This document shows positions 28,871-61,163 of a stretch of DNA of 64,000 bases, one piece after another. The notes under the pieces were generated by a model that saw only the letters and a program-made list of their open reading frames with translations, had not been told where the DNA came from and did no database searches. Positions within the stretch are counted from its first letter, which is position 1; each line of letters starts with the position of its first letter. The DNA comes from an uncultured Pseudomonadota bacterium (GTDB taxonomy: Bacteria > Babelota > Babeliae > Babelales > JAUPTZ01), in the NCBI GenBank assembly GCA_964429275.1, contig CAYSBJ010000003.1, positions 64,906-128,905 on the forward strand, written 5' to 3'. Position numbers and translations under genes: made by a program.

Positions 28871-29004
28871 GAATGTGTTTGTACTAGTTTTATAATGAAT
28901 TTTGCTGCCACCGTGCTATTTTTGCTTGAATTGCCAATATGTTTCTTGGCGGTTGATGGTGGGTGTATACTGAAAAATATGATGTCTTTAAAGAGGGGTT
29001 TTTT

Positions 29005-32000
29005 ATGGTAAAAAGAAATATGCGGCTTTTAGTTTTGATAGTAAGTGTTGTTGGCATGGCTAATAGCTTATTTGCGGATGGATCTCGATTTGAGACTGTG
29101 TCCAAGCATGTTAAAAAGAACCGTCATGCCTATGCCGTTGGGCTTGGAACTGCCGGCCTCCTGAACTTGGCTTACTTATTTAAAAGTGGCAAGCTCAGCA
29201 AAGCTAAGCTCAAAAGACTTTTCAATAAAGAAAATAGCGCTGTAACAACGCAGCTATTGCTTGGCAGTATCCTGCCATTAATCCTTGCGGGAGGCGTTGA
29301 ATTCAATGGCCATGGCTATACGGAAGATGGCGATAATCCAACAGGTGCGGAAAAGCCGACAGGTGCTGAAAAACTAAAAACCGCTGGCGACGCAGTGCGA
29401 CTTCTGACCGGTGAGCTGAGCAAAGAGCAGCTGCGCGCTATGGATGCCGTGGGTGTTGATGCGCCGATAAAAAAAAGAGGCTCTCTAGGAAAAGAGAGAG
29501 GGGCAGAGTGGCGTCAGTCCATCTATAATTTGGATGCTTCTGATGAGCAATCAGAGCGAGCACGGAAAATAGATTTAAACAGTTTCAAAAAAGTATCTGT
29601 GGCAACTGCGCCTGTAGTTAAGTCGGGAAGCGCTCCTGTCGCCTCACATTTAAGCGACCCGAGGGATTCTGTGATAGAGTCTGCACCATCTTCAACATTA
29701 TTATCGGAACATATCGCGAGAAACGTTAAGCATGACCCTAATCCTGCGCCTGTAGAGACTAGAGAAAGTGATGCATCTAGTAATCTTTTAGCGTCTACGC
29801 AATCGCCTGAGTCGTCAGAACTTGTGAAACCGTTGCCAAGAACAGTTTCTCGACGAGTTTCTCTGTCGCCATCAAGCTCTGCAAAATCTTCAGAGCCGGT
29901 GCCGCTGTTGGTGCCACGCCAACCAACTCTTGCCAGAAGCGCCGAGAATAGAGGCTTAAACAGTTTCGAAAAAGCATCTGTGGCAACTGTGCCTGTAGTT
30001 GAAGAACCAAGTGGGTCAGAGCCGGTGCTGCCGTTGGTGTCGCACCAACCAACTCCTTCCGGAACGGCGCTGAATGAAGCATCTATGCCAAGTGCGGATG
30101 AGGCGGAGTTGAAAAAAAAAGAGCTCCAAATTCAGAAGTCTGAGGGCAAAAAAATGTTGCGTGAGGATCTTCTTAGTCGTGAAATTGAGGCACGCGCGGC
30201 TGCACTAAAATATTATCCAGATAAGGTTAATGCTCTCAGCGCGGGGGGGGGCTTTTCTGATCTTTTCAATGAAGCTAACAAGAGCGGCCGCAGTGACGCA
30301 CATCTACTAGCGCGCGACCACTTAGAGTCTGCACTTTTTGCTGGAGGCGCCGAGGTAGAATCCCAAATAAGCCAGTTGACTTCCGAACGACTGGCTCAGC
30401 TTTTAGAATTTCTTATTCCTGATAAATACCTTTATGAGAGCTACGGTGATGATAGCAGGCTTCAGTTTTTAAAACAGGATATTCGCGCGATTTACAAGTT
30501 GCTCACCCTTCTGCGCAATGGGAAGGAACCAAAGGATATTGTCATAAATGCGCAGATCAACAAGAAGCTTCGAAACCGGGTAGCCGGATTGCCGCAGAAT
30601 GTAATTCAAAATGAGAAATACGTTTTAAATTCGCTAATTGATTATGCTTATTCTGCCTCCAAATCGCCACATAGGCCTATGATACTTAATCTGATTCCAG
30701 ATTTTGATGAATTAACGACTTTTCAGCAGCATGTGGTGAGCGATCTCGATGCAGCAGAAGGCTCTTCTTCTGCCGCGGGTCCTCTGGTGTCTGGTGTAGA
30801 TGGTGCAGACGGGTCGAAAGGCTCCCCTTTTGTCGAGCAAGATTCTTTAGACGGTGAGGATGACACTAAAAATAAAACTGCTCGTGATCATTATGAGAAG
30901 ACTTTGAGTAAAAAAGTCTTTGACCAGTGGAGAGCGAGTACTCCGTTGCGGGTTAAAAAGCGCGAAAGCTCAAAAAAAGCTGTCGATCGTGCTAATAAGA
31001 AGCTGCTAAAAACGTCGTTTGAGACATGGAGATCTACTGCGGCCCAACGGGAAGAGGAGGATGTATTGAGCGGTGATCCGACTCCGGTGAATTATGATGT
31101 GCTTATGGCGAATATGGAGCGTTATTCTGGTGCGGGTTTTTTAAATTTTGTTTCAAATGCAGCGAGTAAGGCGAGCGATCCAAAAGACTTAAGGTTGTCG
31201 CTGACTGGATTAATCATGGGGAATGATCCTCTCGGAATGAATAAGGTCAGTGGCGATCAGTTGACGGTGCTCCTTGATTTTATTGTTCCTGACAAAAAAA
31301 CCTATGATGAGTATAAGAAAGAAGATGATGATAACGCTCAGGCTCGCTGGCTTACTAGCGATATCAAGGCTGCCTACAAGCTTTTGATGACGGGTGTGTT
31401 TGAGGGTCGCTCTGATTGTCGGCTAACTCCTGAAAAGCGTGATGACCTTAAGCGTAGGGTTCGCTCCTTGAGGGCTTTACCTCAGCAAGTAGCTGCCTTT
31501 GATTGGATATTGGACAGGGCGTCAGATGGTCAGCCAGGTGATATTCCCGAATATATGCAGCAATATCAACTGAAGCTTGATGCGCCTTCAGGCAAGAGTG
31601 CGATGAGCTCTTCCGGGCCCGATTCCTCTGAAGAATCAGATAGCGAGGATGAAGAAGAAGTTGCTGGTGGCTCCTCTTCGGTTGGAACGGCAGCAAAAAG
31701 ACCAGCGGGTGGCTCTAGTTCAGAGCCAGAAAAAGCAGATCTAGCTTCACCTAGCGCCCCTGTCACAGCTGCTGCGACCGCTCCTGTGGCTCCTAAAACT
31801 ATAGTGATTAATAAAGATCAGGATGGTGCCATCTCGAATGTTACTTATGAAAATTTGTCCTCAGATATTAACCCTGGTCGCGTTGATGGTTTTTGTACGA
31901 AGCACAAAGCTAGCCTGAACAAAATTATATTGAAAGATACCGACCAAGAATCTAGTGTTGCGACAGTTGGCTCTGCAGTGTTATTCGTTTATAGCGGTCA

Positions 32001-32157
32001 TCACTACTTCCTCATGCGCTATAGTGTTCGTGGCAAATGGTTCTCGCACATTCTTGATATAAATGGGCTTGAGATCAAAAATAGTTTGCTAATTCCTTCC
32101 TCTGGAGCTATTGCAGCATACAAAACGATCAAAAACACTATGGATTTACTTCGATAA
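29005..32157 (+). CDS. bilobed-hydrophobic-module family protein (member B) with two 'LLEFLIPD' domains and a C-terminal Cys-His domain
   Basis: SD aagagggg then the ATG at 29005. Module 'HVKKNRHAYAVGLGTAGLLNLAYLFKSGKLSKAKLKRLFNKENSAVTTQLLLGSILPLILAGGVEFNGHGY'. Domains 'LAQLLEFLIPDKYLYESY' and 'LTVLLDFIVPDKKTYDEY'. The C-terminus has 'VDGFCTKH' then, 35 aa later, 'VLFVYSGHHYF'. Confidence 0.65.
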   Translation: MVKRNMRLLVLIVSVVGMANSLFADGSRFETVSKHVKKNRHAYAVGLGTAGLLNLAYLFKSGKLSKAKLKRLFNKENSAVTTQLLLGSILPLILAGGVEFNGHGYTEDGDNPTGAEKPTGAEKLKTAGDAVRLLTGELSKEQLRAMDAVGVDAPIKKRGSLGKERGAEWRQSIYNLDASDEQSERARKIDLNSFKKVSVATAPVVKSGSAPVASHLSDPRDSVIESAPSSTLLSEHIARNVKHDPNPAPVETRESDASSNLLASTQSPESSELVKPLPRTVSRRVSLSPSSSAKSSEPVPLLVPRQPTLARSAENRGLNSFEKASVATVPVVEEPSGSEPVLPLVSHQPTPSGTALNEASMPSADEAELKKKELQIQKSEGKKMLREDLLSREIEARAAALKYYPDKVNALSAGGGFSDLFNEANKSGRSDAHLLARDHLESALFAGGAEVESQISQLTSERLAQLLEFLIPDKYLYESYGDDSRLQFLKQDIRAIYKLLTLLRNGKEPKDIVINAQINKKLRNRVAGLPQNVIQNEKYVLNSLIDYAYSASKSPHRPMILNLIPDFDELTTFQQHVVSDLDAAEGSSSAAGPLVSGVDGADGSKGSPFVEQDSLDGEDDTKNKTARDHYEKTLSKKVFDQWRASTPLRVKKRESSKKAVDRANKKLLKTSFETWRSTAAQREEEDVLSGDPTPVNYDVLMANMERYSGAGFLNFVSNAASKASDPKDLRLSLTGLIMGNDPLGMNKVSGDQLTVLLDFIVPDKKTYDEYKKEDDDNAQARWLTSDIKAAYKLLMTGVFEGRSDCRLTPEKRDDLKRRVRSLRALPQQVAAFDWILDRASDGQPGDIPEYMQQYQLKLDAPSGKSAMSSSGPDSSEESDSEDEEEVAGGSSSVGTAAKRPAGGSSSEPEKADLASPSAPVTAAATAPVAPKTIVINKDQDGAISNVTYENLSSDINPGRVDGFCTKHKASLNKIILKDTDQESSVATVGSAVLFVYSGHHYFLMRYSVRGKWFSHILDINGLEIKNSLLIPSSGAIAAYKTIKNTMDLLR

Positions 32158-32172
32158 AATACTACTTCGTGC

Positions 32173-32201
32173 AAAAGGGCCTCACTTGAGGCCCTTTTTT
32201 A
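32173..32201 (+). terminator. rho-independent terminator
   Basis: aaaa-gggcctc-actt-gaggccc-tttttt. Confidence 0.85.
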
Positions 32202-32312: not shown

Positions 32313-32363
32313 CGTCAGAAGTGTTAATTTTTGTTTTAGAAGAAAAAATTAACACTTCTGACG
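32313..32363. repeat. perfect inverted repeat, 20-bp arms
   Basis: cgtcagaagtgttaattttt - 11-nt loop - aaaaattaacacttctgacg. It lies 160 bp upstream of the Fo-like operon. Confidence 0.9.
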
Positions 32364-32522: not shown

Positions 32523-32801
32523 ATGACAACGATGCTAGTGCTTTCTCTGTGCGTGGGTATTATTGGCGGTGCGGTGCACGGCCACATGGCCCGCCGCTAC
32601 AACAAAGCGCTGTTTGACGGAGAAATCCCCAATCGGTTTGGCGTGCGTTCTGCGTTTATCTTTTTTCGGACAGTGATGACGTTTATTACGATGGCTCTCG
32701 TGTTGTGGACCGGTCTTTTTTCCCCGTTATTTGTTGGAATCGGTATGGCAATTGGATTTATTGGATTTAATGTAATGTGTGCGGTGACAACATGGATGTA
32801 A
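32523..32801 (+). CDS. small 3-TM membrane protein, possible AtpI/AtpZ-like assembly factor
   Basis: 92 aa and hydrophobic. Its 3' end overlaps the start of the subunit-a gene by 10 nt. The functional call rests only on position and size. Confidence 0.45.
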   Translation: MTTMLVLSLCVGIIGGAVHGHMARRYNKALFDGEIPNRFGVRSAFIFFRTVMTFITMALVLWTGLFSPLFVGIGMAIGFIGFNVMCAVTTWM

Positions 32802-33664
32802 CATCACTTTTTTCGTATACCGCGTGGTACCCATTTGCGTGGGCTGGTTTAACGGCACCGGTTTTTGCGGTGCATGTGCAAACACTGGTGTACACCTGGA
32901 CATCCATGGTGTTGTTGCTGGGTGGTGCGTTTATTGTGCGTCGTTATTTTTTCTCAAATGATGGTTTGATGTACGGAAGTATTGAACTCCTTGTCACGAC
33001 TTTTGCCAGTATGTGCGTTGATTCAATCGGCTATTTCCGGCGTGATTATTTTAATTTTATTGCGACGCTTTTTCTTTTTACTTTTTCCGGTTGCATTGTA
33101 AGTGTATTGCCTTACATGGAAGAGTCGACGAAAGATGTGAATACAACGTTTGCTATTGCACTCATCAGCTTCTTTTACATTTGTTACCAGCAGATTGCGC
33201 AAGAAGGGTTGTTGCATTTCTTAGAACATTTTCTTGGTCATCCTGAAATGCCGATGGTAATTCGTATCATTATGATTCCGCTGGAAACAATGGGTAAACT
33301 TTCAAAGATTCTTTCTATGGCTTTTCGCTTATTTGGTAACGTTATTGGTGGTGCGGTGGTGTATCACCTTATTCTTTCGATCGTATTTCTTTTTAAAGAA
33401 CAGTTTCTTATGGCAGTCCTTATTGGCGGTGTGCTTTGGATGGTGTTCTTTAAGTTTTATGGGCTCAAGAAAAAATCACCGCTCGGCAGAATTATTAATG
33501 TTGCGATTCAGTCGCTTTTTGCGCTCGCTGCAATCCAAATGTTTTTTGGTGTTTTTGAACCGCTGGTTCAATCATTTGTTATTGCTATGCTTTCAATGAC
33601 CTACTTGGCCCTCGGAGTAAAGCATGATCTCACCCGTGATCCGAAGGGGCTCGCATGGAACTAA
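32792..33664 (+). CDS. atpB: F-type ATPase Fo subunit a
   Basis: The essential-Arg motif 'MAFRLFGNVIGGAVV' corresponds to E. coli 'LRLFGNMYAGE'. The final helix 'LVQSFVIAMLSMTYLALG' corresponds to 'LQAFIFMVLTIVYLS'. The start was moved to the ATG at 32792. Confidence 0.8.
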   Translation: MDVTSLFSYTAWYPFAWAGLTAPVFAVHVQTLVYTWTSMVLLLGGAFIVRRYFFSNDGLMYGSIELLVTTFASMCVDSIGYFRRDYFNFIATLFLFTFSGCIVSVLPYMEESTKDVNTTFAIALISFFYICYQQIAQEGLLHFLEHFLGHPEMPMVIRIIMIPLETMGKLSKILSMAFRLFGNVIGGAVVYHLILSIVFLFKEQFLMAVLIGGVLWMVFFKFYGLKKKSPLGRIINVAIQSLFALAAIQMFFGVFEPLVQSFVIAMLSMTYLALGVKHDLTRDPKGLAWN

Positions 33665-34620
33665 GTTCTGCACTCGTTTATTTTGGCGGCCTCGTTGCCT
33701 GCATAGGTGTTGGCGCCGGTGGCGCTGCTGTTGGTCAAGGGTATGCCGGTGGTGCTGCAGCTGAAGCGGTCGCTCGCCAAGCGTTAGCGCAAGGGCCGGC
33801 TCGACAGTCGTTGCTTATTGGTTGTGCGTTTTTGGAGAGTGGGTGTGTCTTCTCTCTCATTATCACACTTATTTATCTCTTCACGTATCAGGCAGCGCAA
33901 TCATGGCATGTTGCCGTGACTCTCGGTCTTGCCGCATGTGCCATGGGTATTGTCGCCGGGGTAGTGGGTGCATTTTCTGGTACGGTAGTTGCAGCGGCAA
34001 TTCGTTCTGTTGCTCGTCATCCGCGTGACTTTTCTCGTGTTTTTTCTCTTATGATGGTTGCTCAAATTTTGCTTGAAGCGCCAATGATTTTCATGTTCAT
34101 CATTGCATTCTTGGTTAAGGGATGGGCGGTGCCTACGATGTCGGTGCTCAAGGTTATTCAGCTTGCGGGAGCAAGTCTTGTCTTTGCCTGTGGAACTATT
34201 GGGCCGGCTATTGGACAGGCAGCTTACTGTCGTGCGGCGTGTGAGGCGGTTGGTTTGAATATGTCACTCTATGGACGCATTTTTTCTTTTTCATTTATTG
34301 TGCAAGCAATGATTGAGACTCCAATTATTTTTGCACTACTGACCAGTTTGATGCTTATGTTCTTAGAGCCAATGGCATCGATGCATCCACTAGAGTTGTT
34401 GGCAACCTGTATCGGTGTCATGGGAGCGGTAGGATTTGGATCAGCTGGCGCGGCAATTGGCTCAGGAAAAGCGGCAGCACGAGCGGTATTGTGTATGGCT
34501 GAGCAGGAAGAACAAGCAACTGCAGTTGCGCGGCTCGCTATATTTTGTCAGGCGATTATTGATACGGCAGTGATATATTCTCTTATTATATCGGTATTGC
34601 TGATTAAGACATGTATGTAA
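33655..34620 (+). CDS. atpE: fused four-hairpin F-type c subunit (c4 proteolipid, ~8 TM)
   Basis: 321 aa, read as four ~80-aa c-subunit-like hairpins. Helix 1 is Gly-rich ('GVGAGGAAVGQGYAGGAAAEAVARQ', 'GIVAGVVGAFSGTVVAAAIRSVARHP', 'GTIGPAIGQAAYCRAACEAV', 'GAVGFGSAGAAIGSGKAAARAV'). Helix 2 carries a carboxylate in each copy ('AFLESG', 'ILLEAP', 'AMIETP', 'AIIDTA'). The gene overlaps atpB by 10 nt. Confidence 0.75.
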   Translation: MELSSALVYFGGLVACIGVGAGGAAVGQGYAGGAAAEAVARQALAQGPARQSLLIGCAFLESGCVFSLIITLIYLFTYQAAQSWHVAVTLGLAACAMGIVAGVVGAFSGTVVAAAIRSVARHPRDFSRVFSLMMVAQILLEAPMIFMFIIAFLVKGWAVPTMSVLKVIQLAGASLVFACGTIGPAIGQAAYCRAACEAVGLNMSLYGRIFSFSFIVQAMIETPIIFALLTSLMLMFLEPMASMHPLELLATCIGVMGAVGFGSAGAAIGSGKAAARAVLCMAEQEEQATAVARLAIFCQAIIDTAVIYSLIISVLLIKTCM

Positions 34621-34629
34621 GGAGAAGGT

Positions 34630-35811
34630 ATGAGTAGTCAAGGAGCGCGCGCATTACGTAATCGCGCAGTAGTCTATGTGGTTGATACCTTTGCGCCAGG
34701 TTCGCCTGAGCGGGCTGGCATTGCGGTAATGAATCGCGTAGCCCGAGAAAAAATAGATACATTTCTTGTTGCTCCTATTACGGCAGAAGAGGCGGCAGGA
34801 ACTTTTTTGCTGTGCCGAGAAGTTTTTTCTATTCCAGAAATAGCACCGGCTCTGACTGGATTTTTTACCCTGCACAAGCGAATACATGGCTTTTTTAAGT
34901 TGTGCCGATTGTTTTATGACTTATCCCTTGAGTACGCTGACTTGGTAGTGCATACCCATGGTCATGTGGCTGGCCTTCTTGGTCGATGGGCGGCCTGGGC
35001 TGTCGGGGTTGGGCATACGGTTCATACGGTTTATCAATTTTCATTTGGCCCGTATATGCCGGCCTATCGCTGGTGGATGGCGTATATCGCTGAGTATATG
35101 ACTGCATGGATTACCTCTGAATATATTTGCTTTAATACCAAGGATCGGGCGTTAGGAATTCGACTGTTCCCGTATTTTTCAAAGCGCTGTGCGGTCATTA
35201 GCGCAGGGGTTGATTGGCAACAATTTTATACGCCAGAGCCAGCTGGAAGCTCTGTGCGATTGCCGGTAAGCCCGATAGTTATTGGGACGATCTTGGAGAC
35301 TGGCGTAACGCAAAAAGAATCGGTTTTTACTTTTCTTGCTCTGGTAGAGAAACTGTCTGCGCTGGGGGTTCCAATTCGTGGTGAGATTATCGGTGATGGC
35401 TCTTGGCGATGGGAAGTGACGCAGTGGCTTATAGAGCGTGGACTTGCTGAAAATGTACACATACTCGGTTGGCAGGCGCAAACGGCCTCGGTTATAAAGA
35501 CCTGGCATGTTTTTGTTCATTGCTCTCTTGTTGATACTCCAGCAGTTGGGGTTGTACAGGCCCGTCTCTCGTGGGTGCCGGTGGTTGCCTATCACACGGC
35601 GGGCGTTGATGAAATGATGAAGAATGAAAAAAATGCTCTGCTGGTTGCTCCGGGGGATGTGAACGCCTTATTTAAGGCTATCTATCGCGTTATTATTGAT
35701 CGCGCTTTGTATGAGCGGCTGGCGACATACCAAGAGAATCTTCACGATTATAGCGAGGCGGCCGTATGTGCTCGCCACGTAAAATTGTACAAAAATATTG
35801 CGGGAGAATGA
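34630..35811 (+). CDS. GT-B fold glycosyltransferase (GT4/GT1-like)
   Basis: 393 aa. The C-terminal half has 'VFVHCSLVDTPAVGVVQARLSWVPVVAYHTAGVDEMMKNEKNALLVAPGD', typical of the glycosyl transferase group 1 family. SD aaggagaagg lies 9 nt after the c4 stop. Confidence 0.7.
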   Translation: MSSQGARALRNRAVVYVVDTFAPGSPERAGIAVMNRVAREKIDTFLVAPITAEEAAGTFLLCREVFSIPEIAPALTGFFTLHKRIHGFFKLCRLFYDLSLEYADLVVHTHGHVAGLLGRWAAWAVGVGHTVHTVYQFSFGPYMPAYRWWMAYIAEYMTAWITSEYICFNTKDRALGIRLFPYFSKRCAVISAGVDWQQFYTPEPAGSSVRLPVSPIVIGTILETGVTQKESVFTFLALVEKLSALGVPIRGEIIGDGSWRWEVTQWLIERGLAENVHILGWQAQTASVIKTWHVFVHCSLVDTPAVGVVQARLSWVPVVAYHTAGVDEMMKNEKNALLVAPGDVNALFKAIYRVIIDRALYERLATYQENLHDYSEAAVCARHVKLYKNIAGE

Positions 35812-35908: not shown

Positions 35909-36187
35909 ATGAAGCGCTGGATCAAGATTACTGTTTTTGGAGCAATCCAAAGCGTTGGTTATTGTGAGCACGTACGAAAATATGCAGAACAGTTTCACAT
36001 TGAAGGAACGGTGCAGTTTGAAGAACGTGGGTCGGTATTGATATATGCGGTTGGGGTCAGCGAAGCCTTGGATAATTTTATAGATTACGTATACCAAGGC
36101 TCTGAAAAATCATTGGTTGAAGAGGTCGCCATAGAAATTGCACCACCGGGGCGAGACTTTCGGGGCGTATTTAGAATTATTGGGTAG
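35909..36187 (+). CDS. acylphosphatase-like protein
   Basis: 92 aa. 'ITVFGAIQSVGYCEHVRKYAEQFHIEGTVQFEERGSVLIYAVG' follows the acylphosphatase pattern V.G.VQGVGFR...A..L.G.V.N...GSV. Confidence 0.65.
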   Translation: MKRWIKITVFGAIQSVGYCEHVRKYAEQFHIEGTVQFEERGSVLIYAVGVSEALDNFIDYVYQGSEKSLVEEVAIEIAPPGRDFRGVFRIIG

Positions 36188-36270
36188 GGTGTATGAGTCT
36201 GGCATAGCGGTTTTTTATGTGATACACTACGGGCCTTGTTTTTAACGCTGAATATTTGAGGGGGTAGCAC

Positions 36271-36981
36271 ATGCAAAAGAAGAGTAAGCCATCAACCGGT
36301 TCATGTTGTCATGCTGAAACCACCACTAGTCATACAAGTTCAATCTCTCATGAGTTGTTGTGCCATTTCCCGTATGCGGTTTTTGCCGTTGCGCTGAGCT
36401 TGGTTTTCCTTACCTTGTTTGGGTACACTAATCCAACGAGTTATCGAGAACTTCATGGCCTTTTCCATACATTACACTTTCTTCACATTCTTTTTGCTGC
36501 CACTGGCACTGTGCTTGTATTCCGCAAGTACGGGGGCTCGCTTCTCGGCTCACTTGGAGTGGGCATGTTGGTTCCGGCGGTATTTTGTACTCTTTCTGAC
36601 GCCATTATGCCGTACTTTGGCGGGTTATTATGTGGTGTTCCTATGCATTTTCACTTTTGCTTCAGGGATCACTTTGCGACGATTCTCCTTTTTTTGGTGG
36701 TTGGGGTTGTAAACGGTATAGTCATGAGCTTTCATGATTCTGATGGTCAGCAAAGATATGCGACTACTGCGCACTTTGCTCATATCTTCATTAGTGCTTT
36801 TGCCTCGACGGTTTATATGATCAGTCATGGTTTTAATGACTGGTACCAGCATATGGGTTTTGTCTTTAGCTTTTTATTAATCGCGGTTCTTATCCCATGC
36901 ACACTTGCTGATGTCGTGGTTCCTGCATTTTTTGGCGGTATAAGCGCAAAATCAGCTCGCGCGAGGAGACATGGTGAGTAA
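36271..36981 (+). CDS. His/Cys-rich polytopic membrane protein, unknown function
   Basis: 236 aa with ~6 TM segments and many His/Cys residues ('GSCCHAETTTSHTSSISHELLCHFP', 'HGLFHTLHFLHILF', 'PMHFHFCFRDHF'). It overlaps the potA start by 11 nt. Confidence 0.55.
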   Translation: MQKKSKPSTGSCCHAETTTSHTSSISHELLCHFPYAVFAVALSLVFLTLFGYTNPTSYRELHGLFHTLHFLHILFAATGTVLVFRKYGGSLLGSLGVGMLVPAVFCTLSDAIMPYFGGLLCGVPMHFHFCFRDHFATILLFLVVGVVNGIVMSFHDSDGQQRYATTAHFAHIFISAFASTVYMISHGFNDWYQHMGFVFSFLLIAVLIPCTLADVVVPAFFGGISAKSARARRHGE

Positions 36982-60791: not shown

Positions 60792-60879
60792 CTGGTGGAG
60801 AGAGAGGGATTCGAACCCCCGATGCCTTTCAACATAACGGTTTTCAAGACCGCCGCATTCAACCGCTCTGCCATCTCTC
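60792..60879 (-). tRNA. tRNA-Ser (anticodon UGA)
   Basis: Minus-strand read: GGAGAGATGGCAGAGCGGTTGAATGCGGCGGTCTTGAAAACCGTTATGTTGAAAGGCATCGGGGGTTCGAATCCCTCTCTCTCCACCA. It has a long variable arm, a T-loop GTTCGAATC and an encoded CCA. Confidence 0.9.
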
Positions 60880-60914
60880 CATGAATGTACATATTTTTGT
60901 TTGCCCGTAGGCGA

Positions 60915-61006
60915 ATGGTGGAGAGAGAGGGATTCGAACCCTCGATACCCTTTTCAGAGTATACGCACTTAGCAGGCGCGCGCTTTCGACCGCTCAGCCA
61001 TCTCTC
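60915..61006 (-). tRNA. tRNA-Ser (anticodon GCU)
   Basis: Minus-strand read: GGAGAGATGGCTGAGCGGTCGAAAGCGCGCGCCTGCTAAGTGCG...GGGTTCGAATCCCTCTCTCTCCACCA. The anticodon loop is CTGCTAA, with a long variable arm and an encoded CCA. Confidence 0.9.
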
Positions 61007-61086
61007 CATACCGTAGAATTTCGTTTTCACGAATATTATTACACATATTTTATAGACCGCAAGTTCGCATAAACTTGTTTTAAGAA

Positions 61087-61163
61087 TGGTGCGCCCAATA
61101 GGAGTCGAACCTATAACCGCCAGATTCGTAGTCTGGTACTCTATCCAATTGAGCTATGGGCGC
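61087..61163 (-). tRNA. tRNA-Arg (anticodon ACG)
   Basis: Minus-strand read: GCGCCCATAGCTCAATTGGATAGAGTACCAGACTACGAATCTGGCGGTTATAGGTTCGACTCCTATTGGGCGCACCA. It aligns arm by arm with E. coli tRNA-Arg(ACG). Confidence 0.92.

Follow-up and report, generated by a model that had tools for sequence, protein, structure and literature searches.

We analysed a 64,000-nt stretch of DNA (contig CAYSBJ010000003.1), which is called the window below, and concentrated on a locus at 32523-35811. Four open reading frames (ORFs) on the + strand span this locus, encoding a small membrane protein, subunit a of an Fo sector, a fused rotor subunit c (called c4 here) and a GT4-family glycosyltransferase. As argued below, the locus very probably encodes the membrane part, responsible for ion translocation, of the only F1Fo ATP synthase of the organism, whose other subunits are scattered elsewhere, as in other members of Candidatus Dependentiae (TM6). 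The four genes are as follows (aa, amino acids):

32523-32801, + strand: small membrane protein of 92 aa with three helices (ORF).
32792-33664, + strand: Fo subunit a (AtpB), 290 aa from ATG (ORF, Pfam, NCBIfam).
33655-34620, + strand: fused rotor subunit c4, 321 aa, eight helices (ORF, Pfam, NCBIfam, alignment, AlphaFold, Foldseek).
34630-35811, + strand: GT4-family glycosyltransferase, 393 aa (ORF, Pfam and NCBIfam).

The genes are tightly packed. There is a 10-nt overlap at the junction of the small protein and subunit a, ATGGATGTAA, and another 10-nt overlap at the junction of subunit a and c4, ATGGAACTAA, and the 9-nt gap between c4 and the glycosyltransferase includes GGAG. The longest ORF for subunit a begins with GTG at 32777; gene calls in relatives choose ATG. 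We scanned the four-gene operon for promoters and terminators, and it turned out that no signal above chance level interrupted the operon, so that one transcript across all four genes is plausible from the sequence.

The identity of subunit a is clear from Pfam, where ATP-synt_A (PF00119) scores 111.3 bits against a cut-off of 33.9. The essential arginine R179, contained in FRLFGN, is invariant in 20 homologs, and the protein retains N183 as well as the equivalents of E. coli H245 (Glu here) and Q252. Besides, a clade-specific insertion of ~45 aa (aa 203-247; 33398-33532) is located between helices 5 and 6. This insertion is missing from the ~245-aa a subunits of most Dependentiae, from E. coli, and from L012, a distant metagenomic locus described below; AlphaFold modelled subunit a with a mean predicted local distance difference test score (pLDDT) of 65, too low to interpret the insertion.

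The third gene is the unusual one. Pfam ATP-synt_C (PF00137) matches c4 with 107.8 bits (cut-off 24) in four separate stretches, and NCBIfam TIGR01260 scores 61.3 against a cut-off of 43.95. The limits of the four hairpins are about aa 1-80, 81-160, 161-242 and 243-321, and each quarter aligns with single-hairpin c subunits. With its 321 aa and four hairpins, c4 exceeds the size of about 70-90 residues of a single hairpin, and it is classed as a subunit c variant because it is not a single hairpin. E61, E141, E221 and D303, one in each hairpin, share an alignment column with E. coli D61, Bacillus PS3 E56 and I. tartaricus E65. The codons concerned, together with that of the stator arginine, are located as follows:

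33326-33328, + strand: codon of the essential stator arginine, a-R179 (invariant alignment column).
33835-33837, + strand: carboxylate codon of c4 hairpin 1, E61 (alignment).
34075-34077, + strand: carboxylate codon of c4 hairpin 2, E141 (alignment).
34315-34317, + strand: carboxylate codon of c4 hairpin 3, E221 (alignment).
34561-34563, + strand: carboxylate codon of c4 hairpin 4, D303 (alignment).

Structure prediction gave the same picture. An AlphaFold model of c4, made with 18 homologs, reached a pLDDT of 92.7 and a predicted template modelling score (pTM) of 0.89, in which eight long helices form four hairpins and every carboxylate lies mid-way along the second helix of its hairpin. In Foldseek, the top match of this model was Acetobacterium woodii c1 (PDB 4BEM; E 4e-5, 26% identity), followed by E. 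hirae NtpK, and none of the solved chains spans all eight helices. The four hairpins are mutually only 20-27% identical, and the fusion is therefore old. We regard it as confirmed that c4 is a natural covalent fusion of four c subunits. We found no description of such a c4 fusion in the searchable literature, and public annotations say simply subunit c.

The ion sites and the loops of the hairpins have been conserved to different degrees. Among 46 c4 homologs, the site is always Glu in hairpin 1 and in hairpin 3, and it is Asp (33 of 46) or Glu (13 of 46) in hairpin 4. In hairpin 2 it is Gln in 32, Glu in 13 and Val in one, and Glu is retained by the window's clade and a few others. Judged from these residues, there are four putatively active sites per c4 in the window's clade and three in most other Dependentiae. 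The polar loops read ARQ in hairpin 1, ARHP in hairpin 2, GLN in hairpin 3 and AEQ in hairpin 4. The canonical F1-contacting ARQP of the hairpin 2 loop is retained in 43 of 46 c4 proteins, and the R-Q of the hairpin 1 loop is retained throughout the window's clade. Much of this had been proposed in the original prediction, which was made from the letters and ORFs of this stretch: the four-gene layout with two 10-nt overlaps and a 9-nt gap, the essential Arg in FRLFGN, four tandem c hairpins in the 321-aa product, the carboxylates E, E, E and D, and the polar loop in hairpins 1 and 2 only. All of these hold, the repeat count by the four-stretch profile match and the placing of the carboxylates within the membrane helices by the structural model.

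Two other classes of rotary ATPase were considered for the pair of a and c4 and rejected. For an N-ATPase (atpDCQRBEFAG), TIGR03306 gave 83 bits against a cut-off of 302 and TIGR03322 gave 72 against 131, and the gene order differs. A V/A-type proteolipid is ruled out since NCBIfam V-type K matches c4 far more weakly (E 2.6e-8 at best) than the F-type c model (1e-28), the partner is an F-type subunit a, and Babela massiliensis and TM6SC1 have no NtpA, NtpB or NtpI.

The 92-aa protein encoded by the first gene found no match in Pfam. A small ORF stands upstream of subunit a in 46 of 49 loci, encoding a three-helix protein of 78-140 aa (mostly 80-110 aa), and G16 in the first transmembrane helix (TM1) and R49 in the second (TM2) are invariant in the alignment of its homologs. 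Four of 26 members of this family match Pfam ATP-synt_I (PF03899) weakly, with a best E of 0.0028, and one of 26 matches AtpR; hhalign detected no relationship of the family with the two proteins that are encoded upstream of a in L012. Because of the position upstream of a and the weak ATP-synt_I matches, the protein is probably an AtpI/UncI-like c-ring assembly factor.

To which organism does the locus belong? The closest c4 protein, with 98% identity, comes from a Candidatus Dependentiae metagenome-assembled genome (MAG), and by its sequence the organism of the window is assigned to this phylum of parasitic bacteria. In a scan with one genome per species, c4 was present in 40 Dependentiae/Babeliales species, with a and c4 adjacent, and an exhaustive profile search gave 193 c4 clusters (50% identity; E below 1e-30), almost all of which have 310-325 aa. 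Subunit a adjoins c4 in every locus with upstream sequence available. Such a distribution bears on the idea that the locus is a decaying duplicate or a pseudogenised remnant of an atp operon, for which one could cite that the genome of this energy parasite is reduced and that its atp genes stand outside an operon context. The overlapping ORFs are intact, the catalytic residues are invariant, full-length conservation of c4 reaches down to 28% identity across the phylum, and Babela massiliensis has, in the available part of its annotation, no second a/c pair of which this one could be the duplicate. The conservation data effectively refute the pseudogene reading, and we give it almost no credence.

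We then come to the question of where the F1 and b genes are. Searching with alpha, beta, gamma, delta, epsilon and b queries by tblastn, we found nothing anywhere in the 64-kb window, in agreement with the expectation that no such gene adjoins the locus. The same genes are absent within 10 kb at all ~50 a-c4 loci, and none of the 40 species surveyed for a fused c beside atpB has F1 within that distance. The genome of Babela massiliensis gives more complete information. Its AtpE, located at 296.9 kb, is a protein of 320 aa with four hairpins and has AtpB adjoining, AtpB is preceded by an 84-aa membrane protein and FolC, and AtpG is located at ~490 kb, ~190 kb from AtpE (PMC4378268 supplements). 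The table of COG counts for this species lists AtpA, AtpD, AtpG, AtpC, AtpH, AtpF and AtpB once each and NtpA, NtpB and NtpI with zero; the counts for TM6SC1 match except AtpF, and NtpA, NtpB and NtpI are zero there too (PMC4378268). As far as the available part of this annotation goes, the a-c4 pair represents the sole a and c genes of Babela massiliensis.

With the Babela gamma subunit as query, we recovered Dependentiae gamma subunits, two of which are on contigs that also carry a-c4, at a distance of 70-700 kb: in OY970169.1 gamma is at ~509 kb and a-c4 at ~582 kb, and in contig_7006 gamma is at ~965 kb and a-c4 at ~240 kb. In those two contigs gamma is solitary between tsaE-yacP and murA (L054:10001-10843 and L055:10001-10825), and the same setting of a solitary gamma between TsaE-YacP and MurA recurs in nine further metagenomic contigs (L056-L064). 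Because gamma is solitary, a-c4 stands alone and F1 and b are elsewhere in relatives, the atp genes of Dependentiae are fully dispersed, and a-c4 is the sole Fo core available to F1. The window's own genome most likely contains F1 as well, as judged from the presence of F1 in relatives and the conservation of the RQ(P) loops.

The dispersal of the genes has to be weighed against a rival reading, in which a-c4 works independently of F1, either as a regulated ion conduit or as the motor of some other membrane process, such as glycan or lipid handling with the adjacent glycosyltransferase. It draws on the absence of F1 and b genes within 10 kb in ~50 loci and in the window, on the fact that F1 is not demonstrated for the window's clade, and on the glycosyltransferase, which directly follows c4 in 28 of 40 species representatives even where c4 is ~30% identical and the flanks are different. 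Yet in the relatives exactly one a and one c4 accompany a full F1 with b, so that a-c4 must serve F1 there; the canonical F1-binding loops are conserved (ARQP in 43 of 46), and the membrane potential would be dissipated by an unplugged Fo. The coexistence of a single a and c4 with F1/b genes in Babela, and of gamma with a-c4 on two contigs, likewise speaks against an Fo uncoupled from F1, as suggested in the original prediction, and its other suggestion, namely a partnership with F1 genes encoded elsewhere, is favoured by the genomes of relatives. We therefore hold an F1-independent Fo to be highly improbable.

This reading also involves the glycosyltransferase. The 393-aa protein matches Pfam Glycos_transf_1 (PF00534) with 54.5 bits (cut-off 26.4), NCBIfam gives no equivalog-level match for it, and its nearest solved relatives are TarM and BshA (E about 1e-5). 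In 12 of 40 species and in Babela, it is replaced by MutS, PALP, ankyrin or Na+/solute symporter genes. For instance, a sodium:solute symporter (SSF) gene stands directly 3' of c4 in three species without GT4 (L040:7727-9133, L042, L043:10986-12458). Besides, other neighbours plainly unrelated to the ATPase are equally conserved. A FolC/Mur-ligase-like gene of ~470 aa is immediately 5' of the small protein, a and c4 in most deep-clade Dependentiae, as listed here:

L007:7584-9008: FolC/Mur-ligase-like gene; same place in most of L018-L053, and Babela_gene_640.

Since FolC is equally faithful upstream, genes at this locus can keep their synteny without sharing a function. We downgraded a functional link of GT4 with the motor on the grounds of the FolC synteny and the replacement of GT4 by unrelated genes; a further point against such a link is that neither a specific family nor a close solved relative indicates the substrate of GT4. 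The glycosyltransferase is probably a co-transcribed neighbour outside the motor, not a known ATP synthase component. It is very unlikely that in the window's clade the four genes together have a role beyond or instead of F1 coupling, with a rotor of differentiated hairpins and GT4 tying ion flow to envelope glycolipid or glycan handling, or with a gated Fo kept after the loss of F1. A milder reading is much more likely, in which c4 fixes an unusual gear ratio (8, 12 or 16 hairpins) as a new way to tune an ATP-driven pump.

On the 3' side of the glycosyltransferase, 35909-36981 encodes a 92-aa acylphosphatase and a multi-pass membrane protein of 236 aa for which Pfam has no family. This block precedes a potABCD-like ABC transporter and is conserved with a-c4 throughout the window's clade.

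Returning to the membrane sector of a single F1Fo ATP synthase, we propose the following mechanism. Two, three or four copies of c4 would assemble into a ring of 8, 12 or 16 hairpins, these being the multiples of four within the known F-type c-ring range of 8-17 (PMC7594442); that the ring stoichiometry comes in multiples of four, as proposed before, follows from the four-hairpin fusion. The mid-membrane carboxylates would pick up an ion at one half-channel of subunit a and, passing R179, give it off at the other, and the RQ(P) loops of hairpins 1 and 2 would hold the gamma/epsilon foot of F1. The predicted numbers of ions per ATP are:

8-hairpin ring: 2.7 with four sites per c4 (window's clade), 2 with three sites (Gln lineages).
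12-hairpin ring: 4 with four sites per c4 (window's clade), 3 with three sites (Gln lineages).
16-hairpin ring: 5.3 with four sites per c4 (window's clade), 4 with three sites (Gln lineages).

For the coupling ion, the full Na+ ligand set consists of Gln/Glu32, Glu65 and Ser/Thr66 (PMC2359735), and it is found at no more than one of the four inter-hairpin sites of c4. With such incomplete ligand sets, Na+ coupling is unlikely, and H+ appears more likely. The enzyme would most likely run backwards, hydrolysing ATP and pumping protons so that the membrane is kept energised. TM6 genomes have no electron transport chain and encode ATP/ADP translocases, and their ATP synthase has been proposed to run in reverse (PMC4776705; PMC6561590). 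It is the lack of a respiratory chain and the import of host ATP that make this direction the most likely one, and the a-c4 enzyme is probably an ATP-driven proton pump.

The ring might also be a hybrid, in which c4 co-assembles with a separate single-hairpin c encoded elsewhere. Such arrangements are known from Acetobacterium woodii, and two of the metagenomic loci show comparable gene pairs. The first is L012:1338-10229 (JGI 3300028920, Ga0272441_10011514), a complete operon atpZ-I-B-E(c6)-E(c1)-F'-F-H-A-G-D-C. Its c6 has 485 aa and six hairpins, with Glu in hairpin 1 only and Gln in the other five, and is followed by a normal c of 82 aa; it looks like an extreme F/V-hybrid rotor. The second, L011:7941-10258 (GCA_964460225.1, CAYWTJ010000069.1), encodes subunit a, then a 331-aa four-hairpin c that is carboxylate-free (Ser or Gln) and then a single-hairpin c ended by the contig edge; because chemotaxis genes are present, this organism is probably not a member of Dependentiae. 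A count of 2 for COG0636 in the Babela COG table (PMC4378268) would also fit a hybrid ring. However, a single-hairpin c adjoins c4 neither in the window nor in any of the Dependentiae loci, the Babela annotation, in its available part, has one COG0636 gene, so that the count of 2 may represent two domain footprints, and c4 keeps three to four active sites, whereas in hybrid rings the fused subunits are largely inactive. We consider a hybrid ring unlikely. The six-hairpin c of L012, lying inside a complete atp operon, supports in turn that a fused c can be coupled to F1, as we propose for the membrane sector encoded in the window.

Several points weigh against our interpretation. F1 genes were not found for the window's genome or its own clade (c4 identity 41-98%) in the window and all 20-kb neighbourhoods. 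A scan of metagenomes with a gamma profile did not, among the matches listed, include the 932-kb contig that bears a c4 of the same clade; the look-up of clusters and accessions gave too few accessions to pair a gamma with a c4 from one MAG, and contigs matching the first and last genes of the window were only 3 kb long, with no link to gamma. The register depends on reference c and a sequences (E. coli, Bacillus PS3, I. tartaricus) that were entered by hand. The AtpI assignment of the small protein is thin, with matches of E 0.003 at best, and the ring size, the coupling ion and the direction of operation are inferred only. Finally, GT4 after c4 in 70% of species with very different flanks could reflect a functional tie.

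Upstream of the operon, two further features were noted around its 325-nt leader:

32173-32198, + strand: terminator-like hairpin, two perfectly complementary 12-nt arms followed by a T run, at the 3' end of the upstream 1064-aa gene.
32313-32363, strand not applicable: perfect 20-nt inverted repeat with an 11-nt spacer, in the leader.

The strong terminator-like hairpin marks the 5' boundary of the a-c4 transcription unit. The inverted repeat lies ~160 nt before the first gene and occurs only once in the window, where 0.01 chance matches are expected, and it matches no family in Rfam, which returned only sub-threshold generic hairpin matches for leader and operon. The upstream gene itself (28963-32157) encodes a protein of 1064 aa that contains an internal repeat and long low-complexity stretches rich in Ser, Pro, Ala and Glu, and Pfam gives no significant match for it. 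In the 98%-identical relative (L001), the corresponding gene encodes 1316 aa and is separated from the operon by an inserted gene for an AAA_14/DUF4143 ATPase. Every 2-kb bin of 1-64000 has a positive GC skew, and the + strand carries most of the long ORFs, suggesting that the window is part of a single replichore. On the - strand, tRNA genes (Ser-TGA, Ser-GCT, Arg-ACG) form a cluster at 60793-61163.

The significance of the locus lies in a fourfold-fused F-type c with all four ion sites intact, which ties the ring stoichiometry to multiples of four. The hairpins of c4 are no longer equivalent, because the F1-contact motif is present in two of the four loops only. Since most sister lineages have silenced exactly one site (hairpin 2, Glu to Gln), the phylum represents a natural series from the full to three-quarters of the ion:ATP ratio, which bears on the shifts between synthase and pump in rotary ATPases. 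Besides, the scattered atp genes and the atypical c4 can mislead pathway-completeness tools as well as operon-based reasoning into calling such an ATP synthase incomplete or "orphan"; for example, COG0636 was counted as 0 in TM6SC1 (PMC4378268). The system is ordinary, the Fo of the cell's F1Fo ATPase, and its form is unusual, with a phylum-wide c4 fusion and a dispersed atp set.

Fusion has also gone further elsewhere. Among metagenomic proteins, P0322 (1139 aa) has 15 ATP-synt_C repeats, P0283 (968 aa) has 11, and P0273, P0289 and P0317 (406-434 aa) have five; these may be rotor rings made of a single or nearly single polypeptide.

Compared with known systems, the locus is closest to the canonical atpI-atpB-atpE arrangement, with which it shares the order of small membrane protein, a and c and an F-type a with the essential Arg. 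Like a canonical Fo, it has mid-membrane carboxylates and, in hairpins 1 and 2, RQ(P) loops, and related genomes have F1 and b. The differences are that a canonical c is a hairpin of ~80 aa, whereas here a single 321-aa polypeptide contains four diverged hairpins, and that the canonical operon continues with atpFHAGDC, whereas here a-c4 stands alone, gamma stands alone and the genes are scattered. Split atp operons, with Fo and F1 genes at separate loci, occur in alphaproteobacteria, cyanobacteria and chloroplasts. The dispersal in Dependentiae goes further, gamma being solitary between yacP and murA and b not being placed beside a and c.

With respect to the fusion itself, the c1 subunit of Acetobacterium woodii has two hairpins and one ion site, and a single copy of it is built into a ring with single-hairpin c2/c3. 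It resembles c4 as a fused multi-hairpin c of an F-type enzyme (4BEM). In contrast, c4 has four hairpins with one site each (most other Dependentiae retain three sites), and no gene for a single-hairpin partner was seen. The V/A-type proteolipids have been covalently multiplied as well, to duplicated, triplicated and 13-fold forms (E. hirae NtpK, M. jannaschii, M. kandleri; PMC2359735). Rotor hairpins are fused there as in c4, and the lost site of the deep Dependentiae clade echoes the reduced ion:ATP ratio of the V-type; however, the V/A-type rotor has subunit I as partner, whereas the partner of c4 is an F-type subunit a (PF00119), and its relatives have F1 and no Ntp.

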